From a virus (Duplodnaviria > Caudoviricetes), in the IMG/VR virus record IMGVR_UViG_3300030207_000328, positions 1-25,320 of that record: 25,320 bases of DNA; one strand, written 5' to 3'. The translations under genes and the position numbers were made by a program. Below are positions 14,773 through 20,329 of this stretch, piece after piece. Within the stretch, counting starts at the first letter, position 1. Each line of letters begins with the position of its first letter. The notes beneath the pieces were generated by a model. The model searched no databases. It had not been told where the DNA came from and saw only the letters and a list, made by a program, of their open reading frames with translations.

Positions 14773-14953
14773 TGTTGTTATCTTTACCAGCTTTTATAAG
14801 TTGTTCAACTGTAGCTGGACCTATTGTTGCAATTAATTTATCAGCTTCCCTATCAGATTTATGTTCATCAGGTACATACTGTAAATGTATTTTCTTAACA
14901 ATGGTTCTTAGTAATCGTCTTTCCTCAGGCTTTAGTATGTGTAAAAAACTCAT
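14759..14953 (-). CDS. Hypothetical protein
   Basis: Likely start MSFLHILKPEE at 14953 (ATGA overlap with the upstream gene); the ORF track extends it to 14995. Confidence 0.6.
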   Translation of the reverse strand: MSFLHILKPEERRLLRTIVKKIHLQYVPDEHKSDREADKLIATIGPATVEQLIKAGKDNNIDNI

Positions 14954-15432
14954 AGTTGTCCTGTTCGTTTTTGATAAAATAAATATCCTAGCCACATTAT
15001 CACAGCACCAACCAATGTACAGAGAAATATAACACCAGCTATATTCAATACTCTTGCTCTTAGTTCTTGTTGTGCATACAACTGTTCTTGTCTTTGCTTT
15101 CTTATCTTGGCTTGCATCTTCAATAAATCAGACCATGCGTTAGGACCATGCGTTAGATTAATCCAGTTACGCAGTTCTTCTTCCATAGCTTCTGCCTTTT
15201 TTTTCGCAGCAAATGCATCCATTGCTTCCTGTTCAACACTTGAACCAGCAAATAATTTTTTAAACAATGGTGGGTTCTTGGACATCTTCTCTGCATGGTT
15301 GACATCAGAAACAGCACCCATCCATCTTCCAATGTCACCATACATTGACTCCACATCCTTCCCCATCTGGAAGCCTTTTTTTATTAGGTTGAAGGCTGTT
15401 GAAGCTGTTGCAAGAGCAGTTACTGGGTCCAC
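14950..15432 (-). CDS. Hypothetical membrane-anchored phage protein, 160 aa
   Basis: GTG start MDPVTALA..., coiled-coil middle, single C-terminal transmembrane segment. Confidence 0.65.
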   Translation of the reverse strand: MDPVTALATASTAFNLIKKGFQMGKDVESMYGDIGRWMGAVSDVNHAEKMSKNPPLFKKLFAGSSVEQEAMDAFAAKKKAEAMEEELRNWINLTHGPNAWSDLLKMQAKIRKQRQEQLYAQQELRARVLNIAGVIFLCTLVGAVIMWLGYLFYQKRTGQL

Positions 15433-15434
15433 AA

Positions 15435-16232
15435 TTATCCCAGCAGTGATCGTATCTGCGACATGATACCAGTAAAACCACTCTTCTGTCGTCGTTTTCT
15501 TTTTCTTGAAAGTTCAGTAAGTAGAGTTGGTTCTATTTTTTCTCCAGTAACTAAGTCTAGTTTTGTTTCTTGTGGATTGTCTAGTCGGTTAACAATTCCA
15601 ACTTGCTCTTGTTGAAATGGTGTAAGACCTTTTCTTGTAAAACCTTTTGGTCCAGCCCTATCAGGTGTCATATCTATCAAAGAACCTTTACGACTAAAAC
15701 CTTTTGGTCCACCAGTTTTAACTGCCCTTGAATCTTGTACTCTTACAGATTGTGGGTCTGTGATAGCTTTGATTCTTGTTTCTTTACTAGCAAGTGTTGA
15801 TCCAGTAATAGGGTCTTTATAAATAGTTCCACTTTTTATCTGTCCACCTTTCAGTGTAAACTTTGTTGGACTCTTTGGCTTAGAAAGGGGTGGTGACATT
15901 TTTACTGGCTGGTTAGCTTCAGCTACTTTTCTTGTTATCTTAGGACCACTAGCTTTTGATACTACTGTCTGTATCTTCTTTGCATTGTCTGCACCTCGTG
16001 CTGGCGATTGTGCTTTTGATTTTGCTTTTGCAGATGCCAATGCTTCTTTTTGACTTTTTACTAAAGCAACTCTTGCTCTTTCTTTAGCTTGTGCTAATGC
16101 TTTTTGTGCATTGGCTTTCTCTTGTCTTTCCTTTTCTCTTTGGTCAGACCTAGACTCTTGTGCTGGTCTTGGCGATCTATTTTGTTTTTTCTTTTCTTCT
16201 TGTTTTGCTTTGTAAACACCTCTTGGTGGCAT
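15435..16232 (-). CDS. Highly basic, low-complexity hypothetical protein
   Basis: Likely start MPPRGVYK at 16232 with a GGGAG RBS; Lys/Arg/Ala-rich with two GPKGF.RKG repeats. Confidence 0.6.
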   Translation of the reverse strand: MPPRGVYKAKQEEKKKQNRSPRPAQESRSDQREKERQEKANAQKALAQAKERARVALVKSQKEALASAKAKSKAQSPARGADNAKKIQTVVSKASGPKITRKVAEANQPVKMSPPLSKPKSPTKFTLKGGQIKSGTIYKDPITGSTLASKETRIKAITDPQSVRVQDSRAVKTGGPKGFSRKGSLIDMTPDRAGPKGFTRKGLTPFQQEQVGIVNRLDNPQETKLDLVTGEKIEPTLLTELSRKRKRRQKSGFTGIMSQIRSLLG

Positions 16233-16233
16233 A

Positions 16234-16929
16234 TTAGTTCTCCCTATTTTTAGTTGATGTACTAGATTGCTTTGGTAAAGGCATTGCAGATAAAACTGCA
16301 TTTGCAAGTTTAGATTGCCTTACTGATTGACCTTCTGGTACATTCCAGTTAACAGCTAAGCTACTACTTTCTTTTGGATCAAAAGGTTTTCTATCTGGTT
16401 GTTCAGGAATACGAATACCAGCAAGCATCCTGCCTGGTCCATAAAGAACTCCACCTTGTTTAGCAAGTGCTTCTGGACCGGAAACAACTCTTGTAAATAA
16501 ATTATGTGCTAACTTTAAAGCAACATCTGTGTATCCAACATTTACTTTTTTTGAATCTTCTGTAAGAACATTGCCATCTGTATTTACATACTTTGTTCTA
16601 GGAAAGAAGTCATAAGTATCAATAACATTATAGCCATCTTCTGTTCTTCTTACACCAAATCCACCAAGTATTGTTTTTAGTTGTTTAGATGCACCTTCTA
16701 TATCTTCTTCAAAAATTGATTTTGTTTGAAAGAAAGCATTTATGTGTTCATATTTATACTGTCTGTATGTACCTACTTCGACGTCGCCCATTTGATCGTC
16801 AAGAAATGCCTGAAGTGCTTCCTGTGTTTCTTTACTTATCGACGACATCTTTAGTTCATCACTATCCATGAACTCAGGTAAAAGAGAGTTTGTTATAGCT
16901 TTTAAAAATATCTTTGTATTATCTTTCAT
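16234..16929 (-). CDS. Hypothetical protein, 231 aa
   Basis: Long ORF in the late operon; contains a TILGGF...Y.V.DTYDF motif; no function recognised. Confidence 0.6.
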   Translation of the reverse strand: MKDNTKIFLKAITNSLLPEFMDSDELKMSSISKETQEALQAFLDDQMGDVEVGTYRQYKYEHINAFFQTKSIFEEDIEGASKQLKTILGGFGVRRTEDGYNVIDTYDFFPRTKYVNTDGNVLTEDSKKVNVGYTDVALKLAHNLFTRVVSGPEALAKQGGVLYGPGRMLAGIRIPEQPDRKPFDPKESSSLAVNWNVPEGQSVRQSKLANAVLSAMPLPKQSSTSTKNREN

Positions 16930-17050: not shown

Positions 17051-17437
17051 CTAAGTAAGATCGATCTGTACCTTAATTTCACCAGCGTGTAGGTGCATAT
17101 GTTTATCTGGTGCTTTGAATCCAGCTCTATCAAGGATATCTTTACTTGCTTCAAGCTGGACATACTCACTTTTAGCACCGCTGGCTAGCTTAACAAGCTT
17201 TGCACTAGCTAACGTAGCATTAACACCCAATGATTCTGTTATTCGTTTCATCATGTACTCTTGCACATGAGGTAGTCGCAAAGCTTTGCTAGCCGTGACT
17301 CTCCCAGAGTCACCACTAGCGTAGCCAGCTTCTTGGCTGGCTTTAGCTATACTACAACCTTCTGCTACGAGTGTATCAACTAAAAGCATCTGTTTCTTTG
17401 TCAAAGGTCGACGACCATTGTCTAAATCTGAACTCAT
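17051..17437 (-). CDS. terS: Terminase small subunit, 128 aa
   Basis: LT.KQ...V, A...AGYA....TASK.LR.P.V HTH and SE.V.L.AS.DILDRAG motifs; RBS AGGGGG. Confidence 0.8.
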   Translation of the reverse strand: MSSDLDNGRRPLTKKQMLLVDTLVAEGCSIAKASQEAGYASGDSGRVTASKALRLPHVQEYMMKRITESLGVNATLASAKLVKLASGAKSEYVQLEASKDILDRAGFKAPDKHMHLHAGEIKVQIDLT

Positions 17438-17455
17438 GACAACCCCCTAGTCCCC

Positions 17456-17485
17456 CTAATACTTCATCAAAATACTACTTGTCAA
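17456..17485 (-). promoter_or_regulatory. Putative sigma70-type promoter for terS
   Basis: Perfect TTGACA (17485-17480), 18-nt spacer, TATTAG, just upstream of the terS RBS. Confidence 0.45.
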
Positions 17486-17560
17486 CCTACAATTATAGGC
17501 TTGGCTTGCCAGGGGCAAGCTAGTCTTATTGTTGGTTGCTAAGCCTAACCAAAGTTGCGT

Positions 17561-18736
17561 CATGATTAATAGAGCCACCTCTAAGGCAGACTAGGTTTGT
17601 GACCAAGCTTCCGCATCAATATCGTCGACTTCCTTACTTGTTCTAACAATTAGACGCCTTTGCTTTTTCGTGTGCCAACCTTTACCAACTAGAGGTTCTT
17701 ATATACCTCAAGATCAGTGGTGTTTGACATCAAGGCGCTCCTTTCACTGTTCTCCAACTACGGCAAGCATAGACATCTGAGGATGCCTAACATCCTGTCC
17801 AGAGCATATCACGCGTAGGAGTTTGTCACGAACCTCAGAGATATGACCAGTCTAACATTGTACACTGTCATCAGAAGTGAAGCACGCGTAAGACTCTATC
17901 TATTAATTATCTGAGACATGAGTGAAACTTCCACAATGCTAGTTTTTTAGTACTAAAAGGGCATACTAAAAACATAACTGCAATTTTAGAATCTAATAAG
18001 TTCTAAAGCATTTCGCACTTTTTTCAGACATTTTGAGTCTCCTACGATTTGGCTAAAATGCAACCCTTTCGCGAGGATCATGCTGTCAACATCACATATC
18101 ATTCGCACGCTTTCAAGTTTGTCCGTACCACCCATAGCCTAACTTGAAAGCGCGTTGATGTATGCTGTTCGCTAGTGATATGACTGACGTCATGGCGAAC
18201 AGTAGCTTCTATGTACGAATGATATGTCATGCCGTCATCATGATGCGAAAGCATTACATTTTAACCAAATAGGAGACTAGAAAATGTCTAAAAAAAGCAC
18301 AAAATACAAGAACTTAGTAGATTCTAAAATCGCAGTTATTAACTACCATTCTGGAGATTCACTAACATATCTCAGAGAATCAATAGCTAGAGACGCGTGC
18401 TACACTTCTGCTAACAGCATACAATATAAGTCTGATCAAATCTCTGAGAACCGAGACAAACTTGCAGACCTACGCGAGACATACTCTGGACAGGAAGTCA
18501 TCCATGTTCAGATGTCTAAACTAGCCTACGTCATTGGAGAACAGCAAAAGGAGCTTTCAGAACTTGATGACAGACACCAAGCTGATCTCGAGGTATATAA
18601 GAAATTAGTTGGTAAAGCTTGGACTCAAAATGCAAAGTCATCTAATTCCAAGAACAAGCTAGCGGAACTCGACGAGATTGATGCTTTATTGAAAGCTTAA
18701 TCACAAACCAATTCTCCCTAAGAGGTGGTAATCATG
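17561..18736. repeat. Giant imperfect inverted repeat (arms ~17561-18108 and ~18213-18736)
   Basis: Hand alignment shows the reverse complement of the left arm is colinear with the right arm throughout. Shared blocks include GAGGTATATAAGAA, TAGATTCTAAAAT, CTCTGGACAGGA, TAGTTGGTAAAG, TAGGAGACT and AGAGGTGG. Confidence 0.95.
18284..18700 (+). CDS. First early gene, coiled-coil protein of unknown function, 138 aa
   Basis: RBS AGGAG at 18271, intact ORF, followed by an intrinsic terminator; forms the right arm of the inverted repeat. Confidence 0.8.
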   Translation: MSKKSTKYKNLVDSKIAVINYHSGDSLTYLRESIARDACYTSANSIQYKSDQISENRDKLADLRETYSGQEVIHVQMSKLAYVIGEQQKELSELDDRHQADLEVYKKLVGKAWTQNAKSSNSKNKLAELDEIDALLKA

Positions 18737-18750
18737 CCACCTCTTTTTTT
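18721..18750 (+). terminator. Rho-independent terminator
   Basis: AGAGGTGG-taatcatg-CCACCTCT followed by a T tract. Confidence 0.8.
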
Positions 18751-18790
18751 ATGCTTATCAACCACTTACTGTATCAACAAGGAGGTACAT

Positions 18791-19261: not shown

Positions 19262-19494
19262 GTAGGATGGGTCAAATCAAACTAGCTGGATGGTTGAGCA
19301 TACCATTATGTATTGCAATCATATATGTAATACACAGCTTTCCACAAATGTTTCCCTATCATGGCATATGGCAAATCGTTATAGCTGGGGTAGCATTAAA
19401 TACAATAGTTCATTTAACAATAACAATTCCAAGATGGGAGAAAGACAATGAGCAAAGCAGATCAAATTGTTCAAATCATTATCAAAAAAATTGA
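19258..19494 (+). CDS. Small two-transmembrane hypothetical protein
   Basis: ATGA overlap; two hydrophobic segments. Confidence 0.55.
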   Translation: MSRMGQIKLAGWLSIPLCIAIIYVIHSFPQMFPYHGIWQIVIAGVALNTIVHLTITIPRWEKDNEQSRSNCSNHYQKN

Positions 19495-20329
19495 AGACGG
19501 CATTGATAACAAATGGCAAATGCCCTGGCATAATCGAGACTTTAGATTTCCAATCAACACTGATGGCTATGAGTATCAAGGATTGAATTGCTTTTGGCTT
19601 TGGATGGTCAAAGATATGCGAGGTTATACCAGTAATCAATGGGGTACATACAACCAATGGAAACAAATTGGTGGTGATGTCGGAGGTCAGTCAGCAACTG
19701 CATACAATCAATACATATTGCAACCAAGAATCGGCACTGACGACGACGATAATGTATTCATCAAGGGCTTCAAGACTTGGGCTGTCTTCAATCGCGATCA
19801 AGTCAAAGGCTTACCTAAACTGCAATCAGAACAATCATTTGTTACAGAAGAAATGATAACCGATAAAGCAATCAAACAGCAGTGCATCAACTGGTTCGCA
19901 AACATACCAGCAACAATTCATACTGGTCACAACAAAGCCTGTTATGTTCCATCAAAAGATGAAATCCGTATGCCTGACTTTGATACATTCAGAACAGACA
20001 TTGATTATTATTCTGTACTGGCACATGAGATTATACATTGGACAGGTGCGGACCAAAGACTAAACAGAAAGCTATCACAAGAAAGACAATCATATGCTTT
20101 CGAAGAATTGGTTGCTGAACTTGGCAGTGCATTGATAGCTGCAAATTTAAAGATCCAATCTAAACCAACAGACAATACAACTGCTTACCTCAAAGGCTGG
20201 TTACAAGCAGTTAAAAAGAAACCAAAGACACTATGGGATGCAATGTCTTTGGCTAAACACGCAGTCTCTTTTCTCAATGATTATCAACGCAAGAATATTG
20301 CAAGATCATTGCAGAAAAAGGTTGCATAA
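19448..20329 (+). CDS. ardC: ArdC-like antirestriction protein (ssDNA-binding N-domain plus zincin-like metallopeptidase domain)
   Basis: W.MPW, Y.G.N...LW, W.TY.QW...GG, VFN.DQV.G, ACY.P..D.I.MP, AHEIIHWTG (HExxH) and YAFEELVAELGSA motifs. Confidence 0.88.
   Translation: MSKADQIVQIIIKKIEDGIDNKWQMPWHNRDFRFPINTDGYEYQGLNCFWLWMVKDMRGYTSNQWGTYNQWKQIGGDVGGQSATAYNQYILQPRIGTDDDDNVFIKGFKTWAVFNRDQVKGLPKLQSEQSFVTEEMITDKAIKQQCINWFANIPATIHTGHNKACYVPSKDEIRMPDFDTFRTDIDYYSVLAHEIIHWTGADQRLNRKLSQERQSYAFEELVAELGSALIAANLKIQSKPTDNTTAYLKGWLQAVKKKPKTLWDAMSLAKHAVSFLNDYQRKNIARSLQKKVA

Follow-up and report, generated by a model that had tools for sequence, protein, structure and literature searches.

Why should a tailed phage keep, between its packaging operon and its first early gene, a non-coding stretch of DNA that reads as a reversed copy of that same gene? 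The question is raised by a stretch of 25,320 nucleotides (IMG/VR record IMGVR_UViG_3300030207_000328, positions 1 to 25,320, called the window below), a podovirus record that is 76% complete. Its virion genes occupy the minus strand; on the plus strand, an operon encodes ArdC, a lambda-O-like initiator, YqaJ and ERF; genes for terL, portal, capsid and tail tubes are recognisable, as well as a RusA-like gene. At the junction of the two gene sets, 17533-18108 is the reverse complement of 18213-18764 (Table 1). The earlier note on this DNA, made from the letters alone, had placed the repeat at 17561-18108 and 18213-18736; it is real and reaches slightly further. The alignment of the two arms, which are 83% complementary, comprises 434 matches, 90 mismatches and 20 blocks, and its longest perfect run is 14, in agreement with the value of about 14 bp given before. 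The local score is 532, against 34±4 (maximum 51) in 100 shuffles and 27-71 elsewhere in the window. The right arm starts 71 nt ahead of the ATG and ends 64 nt beyond the stop codon. It thus covers the upstream region, the RBS and the full ORF, as had been described, and the whole terminator rather than half of it. The mirror retains just the 5' half and the loop of this terminator, so that the terminator hairpin cannot form there. It also keeps an AGGAG (18043) and an ATG (18031), followed by a stop after 12 codons, and each of its three minus-strand frames contains 13-16 stops. As the note had it, the mirror is non-coding.

Table 1. Parts of the element and neighbouring genes, with positions in the window
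Feature	Position	Strand	Remarks
Non-coding mirror arm	17533..18108	-	Early transcription unit in a sense-like copy; in the predicted fold-back, the non-template partner
Mirrored arm	18213..18764	+	Upstream 71 nt, RBS (18271-18275), ORF, terminator and ~12 nt past the T-tract
First early gene, 138 aa	18284..18700	+	Predicted helical hairpin, pLDDT 92
Central loop	18109..18212		Predicted fold: two hairpins (18108-18152, 18165-18202), branched tip
Hairpin with T-tract after the first early gene, like an intrinsic terminator	18720..18752	+
Hairpin insert of 28 nt	17946..17973	-	Looped out of the mirror; two TTTTAGTA copies
Terminator-like hairpin	17501..17523	+	Outer edge of the mirror
terS promoter-like site	17443..17485	-	TTGACA, 18 nt, TATTAG, then two G-tracts
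terS, first gene of the virion/packaging operon	17051..17437	-	PF03592
ArdC-like gene	19448..20329	+	PF08401, PF18818; neighbour, no constant part of the element

The protein encoded by the mirrored gene has 98 relatives at the 50%-cluster level. No family could be assigned to it; there is no Pfam match, and PHROGs gave one weak match of unknown function. Fold searches returned generic helical hairpins, the best Z of 10.6 being below the helical threshold and the best Atlas score being 0.77. One mosaic homologue, P0004, matches the window protein over ~95 residues and then continues with a different C-terminus (seen at the protein level only). The identities proposed for the neighbours, terS and ArdC, both hold. 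A general link between the element and ArdC does not, this gene being present in just three of five near-complete genomes. Three ORFs without Pfam match (231, 290 and 160 aa; 14950-16929, minus strand) lie between terS and terL, and the terS-terL gap is shorter in several distant relatives than in the window. Pooled over lineages, the plus-strand GC skew climbs over the first 3.5 kb downstream of the gene start, being close to 0 at the element and about +0.12 at 2.5-3.5 kb; this may reflect gene content or exposure as ssDNA.

The element is not an assembly artefact. Single contigs from three of four independent DNA studies (X11, X12, X14) cross both arms, and a strand-switch joint was seen in none of the four, on which basis (contigs only) inversion of the central loop was rejected. 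Natural variants were found: X7 and X12 carry a deletion of 19 nt in the inner central hairpin (at 18172), and X11 has 4 nt inserted in the mirror (at 17856), L007 having a similar insertion. Three scans of IMG/VR for homologues of the 138-aa gene gave 12, 43 and the best 80 of 123 loci. Two loci were dropped for too little upstream DNA, and 101, including the window and the cultured pelagiphage Hodr, were scored. A mirror of the locus's own gene (score of at least 60) is present in 99 of them, down to 34% protein identity. The scored loci form 30 clusters at 70% protein identity, and each of the 11 lowest-scoring representatives lies above its own 30 shuffles. The arm passes the stop codon in 58 of the scored loci and ends before it in 43 of the 101 (a few of these being contig ends), so full coverage of the gene is not required.

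The two arms also change together, as they do in 15 of 17 genome pairs. Between the window and L008, 65 columns have changed in both arms where 17.6 are expected, with bulges retained; 51 compensated columns stand side by side with 75 columns in which a bulge is shared and 73 that are unpaired in both. In 11 of 21 lineages (p at most 0.026), column shuffling gives longer perfect runs than those observed, and interruptions spread evenly in this manner would keep the repeat stable in duplex DNA. The view that this is a selected rod rather than a decayed duplicate is thus borne out by conservation and co-variation. The element is real, selected and widespread in this marine podovirus family.

What is mirrored can be read from the ends of the arms, whose starts lie 39-115 nt ahead of the ATG. 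Among full-length lineages, 16 of 18 have a terminator after the gene, against 3 of 11 short-arm lineages (p=0.0013, for lineages that are not independent and with one dropped at a contig end). In 14 of the 16 full-length lineages with a terminator, the arm end lies -5 to +17 nt from the terminator end, whereas the position relative to terS differs between lineages by several hundred bases, the arm lying well upstream of terS at one extreme and reaching 264 nt into it at the other. Because the arm ends track the terminator while the terS offset varies, the mirrored unit is the gene's transcript and not terS. The repeat had been said to end at the boundaries of the transcription unit; this is supported at the 3' boundary, by the terminator, and only there. 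On the outer side of the mirror, the hairpin at its edge would presumably stop plus-strand read-through into the mirror.

A promoter of the Frpo type, rebuilt as -35 and -10 by the fold, is not supported. We found no sigma-70 consensus for the gene, either folded or linear: mean scores over 30 lineages are 7.9 for linear DNA, 8.2 for the mirror and 7.5 for the bulge-corrected duplex, against 8.15 for shuffled sequences and 9.8 upstream of terS. One candidate at 18180-18208 loses its -35 in the natural 19-nt deletion, and a TTGACA in the mirror, considered as a fold-specific -35, is not conserved. That the duplex has no consensus promoter is in keeping with a gene that stays silent in this form. 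Contig ends, considered as a sign of genome termini, are distributed flatly and were uninformative.

Several smaller parts recur. In 15 of 30 lineages, the minus strand upstream of the gene carries the 7-mer core of the TTTTAGTA motif, against a background of 0.09 per kb per strand. The motif is often doubled, is found within the mirror or next to it (again 15 of 30) and is a candidate protein-binding or cut site. The second central stem (18165-18202) resembles a motif common to about one third of the lineages. This conserved stem (GTTCGCAA / TTGCGAAC) forms a three-way junction with a variable inner loop, has no match in Rfam, and is present in L013, L067, L075, L085, L090, L093 and others, 90-190 nt before the ATG. 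Super-stable DNA GNA triloops were considered as a feature of the tip and found in one of 54 hairpins only. Upstream of terS, TTGACA followed by a G-run, usually two G5-7 tracts, occurs in 23 of 30 lineages, and ~690 stored IMG/VR stretches contain a stricter form of this motif. An R-loop or a hybrid quadruplex may form there, or the site may act as a pac signal or be no more than an unusual leader.

This terS promoter/G-tract motif was scanned for and found at 120 loci; in 51 the upstream DNA was too short, which left 69. A fold-back is found in 30 of the 47 with a terS relative and in 2 of the 22 without. No relative of the 138-aa gene is detectable in 18 of these 30 loci, where the short arms lie mostly over the start of an ORF of 122-168 aa that may be a remote relative of it. 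MEP301, Skadi-1 and BcepC6B have no fold-back at the corresponding junction. A prophage context was also considered; GTDB gave a single match, the archaeal MAG contig L106 (PBGS01000047.1), with a weak fold-back score of 71, and this is probably a mis-binned phage contig.

Hodr, whose host is Pelagibacter HTCC1062, encodes a remote homologue of the 138-aa protein (probability 82.5%). Its mirror scores 274 against a genome median of 34 and takes in the promoter of terS together with 264 nt of the terS coding sequence. These terS codons (L044:11773-12036, in a record named Hodr whose locus tags read 'EXVC032PBaldr') are complementary to the early gene over its 3' part, with a score of 109 against 30±5, so that one sequence here serves both coding and pairing. 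Such an overlap with terS is not convincing in the other 29 lineages (z at most 3.2).

The two strands of the element are not equivalent. In the window, 36 transition mismatches form G·T on the minus strand and 3 do so on the plus strand (p=4e-8), and folding of both strands, a check that had been advised, favours the minus strand both as RNA (-693 versus -569 kcal/mol) and as DNA (-395 versus -333 kcal/mol). The minus strand is the template strand of the mirrored gene, and in the predicted fold its 18213-18764 segment is the paired template. Pooled over 21 lineages, the minus strand has 675 G·T against 113 C·A, 403 G·A against 214 C·T, 146 G·G against 38 C·C and 240 T·T against 105 A·A. All these classes favour the minus strand, yet they fit either DNA or RNA. 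A cis-antisense RNA acting on the mRNA, one of the options raised before, is disfavoured, because such a pair would hold C·A where G·T is seen; the favoured wobble lies on the other strand. A plus-strand leader hairpin likewise has the wrong wobble strand, and a deamination purge of unpaired C as sole cause of the bias was rejected, bulges being rich in C and T. Little wobble bias is seen in Hodr (11:7) and in 6 of its 10 relatives tested (61:51 pooled).

The context of the mismatches separates the two molecules. In a regression on 1026 isolated mismatches from 21 lineages, with mismatch class, flank GC and neighbour identity controlled, the slope on the minus-strand DNA penalty is -1.00 per kcal (lineage bootstrap -1.20 to -0.83) with the right sign in 21 of 21 lineages, that on the RNA penalty is 0.17 (-0.03 to 0.43) with the right sign in 4 of 21, and that on the plus-strand DNA penalty is +0.27, all these values depending on one parameter set per molecule, on related lineages and on alignment-dependent columns. 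The outcome is the same without covariates. Alternative energy sets gave identical output and are therefore no independent checks. In a permutation test, z is -2.7 for DNA, -1.2 for RNA and -0.2 for simulated decay; RNA energies thus give a weak signal here, negative in 18 of 21 lineages. A second set of 20 motif-scan loci, mostly from other lineages, gave -0.60±0.16 for DNA and +0.53±0.20 for RNA, and the mismatches of Hodr still show the DNA-context sign. GNRA or UNCG loops occur in 11 of 23 terminator hairpins, against 0 of 54 and 1 of 58 central hairpins. Since the mismatches follow DNA energies and the tip is without RNA tetraloops, the folded molecule is likely ssDNA of the gene's template (minus) strand, and the preference of the earlier note for an ssDNA fold-back over a long structured RNA gains support. 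The same signature could also arise if repair or conversion acted on DNA hairpins that form transiently.

The repeat, its conservation, the co-variation of its arms, their strand asymmetry and their end at the terminator are all directly observed. We propose that the element is a co-evolving inverted copy whose minus strand folds into a rod, the mirror being a built-in non-template strand for transcription; the chances that this is correct seem to us about even. A transiently single-stranded minus (template) strand would fold back into a rod of ~550 bp, and the mirror, as a substitute non-template strand, would let host RNA polymerase make, release and terminate the gene's mRNA. Bacterial RNA polymerase leaves its RNA hybridised to single-stranded templates, and for this reason a mirror that extends through the terminator would be sensible as such a substitute. 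The virion RNA polymerase of N4 also leaves RNA:DNA hybrids on single-stranded templates and, according to the accessible text on it, SSB is needed for displacement (PMC4496689). As a source of the ssDNA we favour resection, running 5'-to-3' once the DNA has been ejected, of the genome end next to terS. If packaging proceeds from near terS into the late genes, in the manner of P22, the second end would lie immediately to the left of the element, and it is the minus strand that such resection would lay bare. Strand displacement from the terS G-tract site is the alternative source. We know of no ssDNA stage in podoviruses. The missing sigma-70 promoter, the short arms in 43 of 101 loci and the small wobble bias in the Hodr family also speak against the model.

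Tailed phages are assumed to express their early genes from duplex DNA. A bolder form of the proposal would have a programmed single-stranded stage at the terS/early junction, with a self-annealing 'spare strand' and a first gene expressed only from folded ssDNA; we advance it tentatively and think it somewhat more likely to be wrong. If true, the gene would be switched on by resection or displacement, for example in answer to attack of a host exonuclease on the entering end.

The same ssDNA fold could serve DNA metabolism instead, as a giant single-strand origin, a replication roadblock or a substrate of a resolvase or terminase, which we consider possible though unlikely. In one variant, displacement primed at the terS promoter and G-tracts would free the minus strand and expose the mirror last. 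A parallel is offered by most rolling-circle plasmids, whose sso lies upstream of the dso and is exposed last, as the available text of PMC4595007 describes. Likewise, ssp2 of F is presented as a replication roadblock and Frpo transcripts as primers of synthesis in the accessible part of 10.64898/2026.01.09.698686, and two G-tracts are reported to be enough for the RNA:DNA hybrid quadruplexes that stabilise the mitochondrial primer R-loop (excerpts of PMC3664831 and PMC3488243). The DNA signature of the mismatch contexts agrees with such a role, as do the conserved looped-out TTTTAGTA motif, the RusA-like gene and the scarcity of terminators after the gene in short-arm forms (3 of 11). However, it fails to explain why full-length arms track the terminator and the coding sequence. 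Hodr has a mirror without G-tracts, the second G-tract can act as the ribosome-binding site of terS, and the lambda-O-like initiator encoded by the phage does not favour this reading either.

A long minus-strand RNA (antisense, loop and mirror) folding into a rod, from which the perfectly matching mRNA would displace the mirror as a switch, is improbable in our opinion. The G·U bias and the better RNA fold of the minus strand are in its favour, and the RBS and start are covered in most forms. Six short contigs from RNA libraries (4 runs) all fall within 17294-18665, two of them on the mirror, although these libraries are unstranded, the runs were selected by the element region and DNA carry-over is possible. 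The mismatch contexts do not follow RNA energies, though, and the tip has almost no RNA tetraloops. Moreover, there is no conserved minus-strand promoter beyond the arm, terS has its own promoter (inside the arm in Hodr), and a search of the window region and 12 loci against Rfam gave only sub-threshold, chance-level matches.

Neutral concerted evolution has little probability as well. Here an old inverted duplication would be kept alike by arm-to-arm conversion in transient hairpins, from which stable mismatches escape. Conversion alone yields double changes, and in 7 of 17 pairs (window correlation, p<0.05) the changes cluster at corresponding places of the two arms. Such copying should nevertheless erase the shared bulges and unpaired columns among which the compensated columns stand in the comparison with L008. 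Nor would it fix the boundaries to the gene, keep ~600 bp in genomes of 32-34 kb, or make the Hodr terS codons complementary to the gene. Finally, a recent decayed duplicate or an assembly artefact, suggested by the stops and indels in the mirror and by mismatches spread evenly over codon positions (18, 25 and 24), is refuted by the own-gene mirrors in 99 of 101 loci, co-variation, spanning independent contigs and a cultured isolate, and has practically no chance of being right.

A selected, gene-length ssDNA fold-back in many marine lineages would point to an unrecognised single-stranded stage in entry or replication. This is testable in a cultured phage-host pair, Hodr on Pelagibacter HTCC1062, and the mismatch-context test provides a sequence-only means to separate DNA from RNA structure in other mirrors.

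The earlier note knew of no described phage element of this kind, and we found none for tailed phages in searches of full-text papers, mostly from outside the subscription journals. In phage antisense and fold-back RNAs such as P1 c4 and P4 CI, and in the fold-back inhibition of IS10, complementarity covers the RBS and start codon. That of the element spans both too; unlike in those RNAs, the pairing favoured here joins two parts of the antisense strand and obeys DNA energies, and Rfam has no match. The proposed early transcription through a DNA structure of the template strand, with a transcript that needs displacement, recalls the hairpin promoters of the N4 virion RNA polymerase with EcoSSB. 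According to the available text (PMC4496689), N4 uses short hairpins, its own virion RNA polymerase and SSB, whereas no RNA polymerase gene was identified in the present 76%-complete record. With the sso of rolling-circle plasmids and ICEBs1, the element shares a strand-specific imperfect hairpin beside a candidate initiation site (PMC4595007). RNA polymerase-dependent sso hairpins are active solely as ssDNA and, as far as the excerpts of that source describe them, do not mirror a gene (PMC4595007). Among the window proteins scanned (record 76% complete), no rolling-circle Rep or relaxase was found, and a lambda-O-like initiator was. Also close in design are the single-stranded promoters Frpo and ssi of the F and ColIb-P9 leading regions (PMC9849209, PMC11541004). 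In both cases an imperfect fold-back of the template strand lies in non-coding DNA just upstream of entry genes, with transcription from ssDNA being proposed, and a stable, strand-specific stem-loop of the template strand upstream of the gene is also predicted here. In the accessible text of these sources, Frpo is an intergenic stem-loop that rebuilds a canonical -35/-10, and the strand that bears it is known to enter the cell single-stranded. Here the fold rebuilds no canonical -35/-10, scores being at shuffle level in 30 lineages, and the setting is not a conjugative leading region but a podovirus with terL, portal, capsid and tail tubes. In contrast to Frpo so described, the element is without a consensus promoter and belongs to a tailed dsDNA phage, and its stem covers the gene and its terminator and needs a co-evolving copy of the coding sequence.
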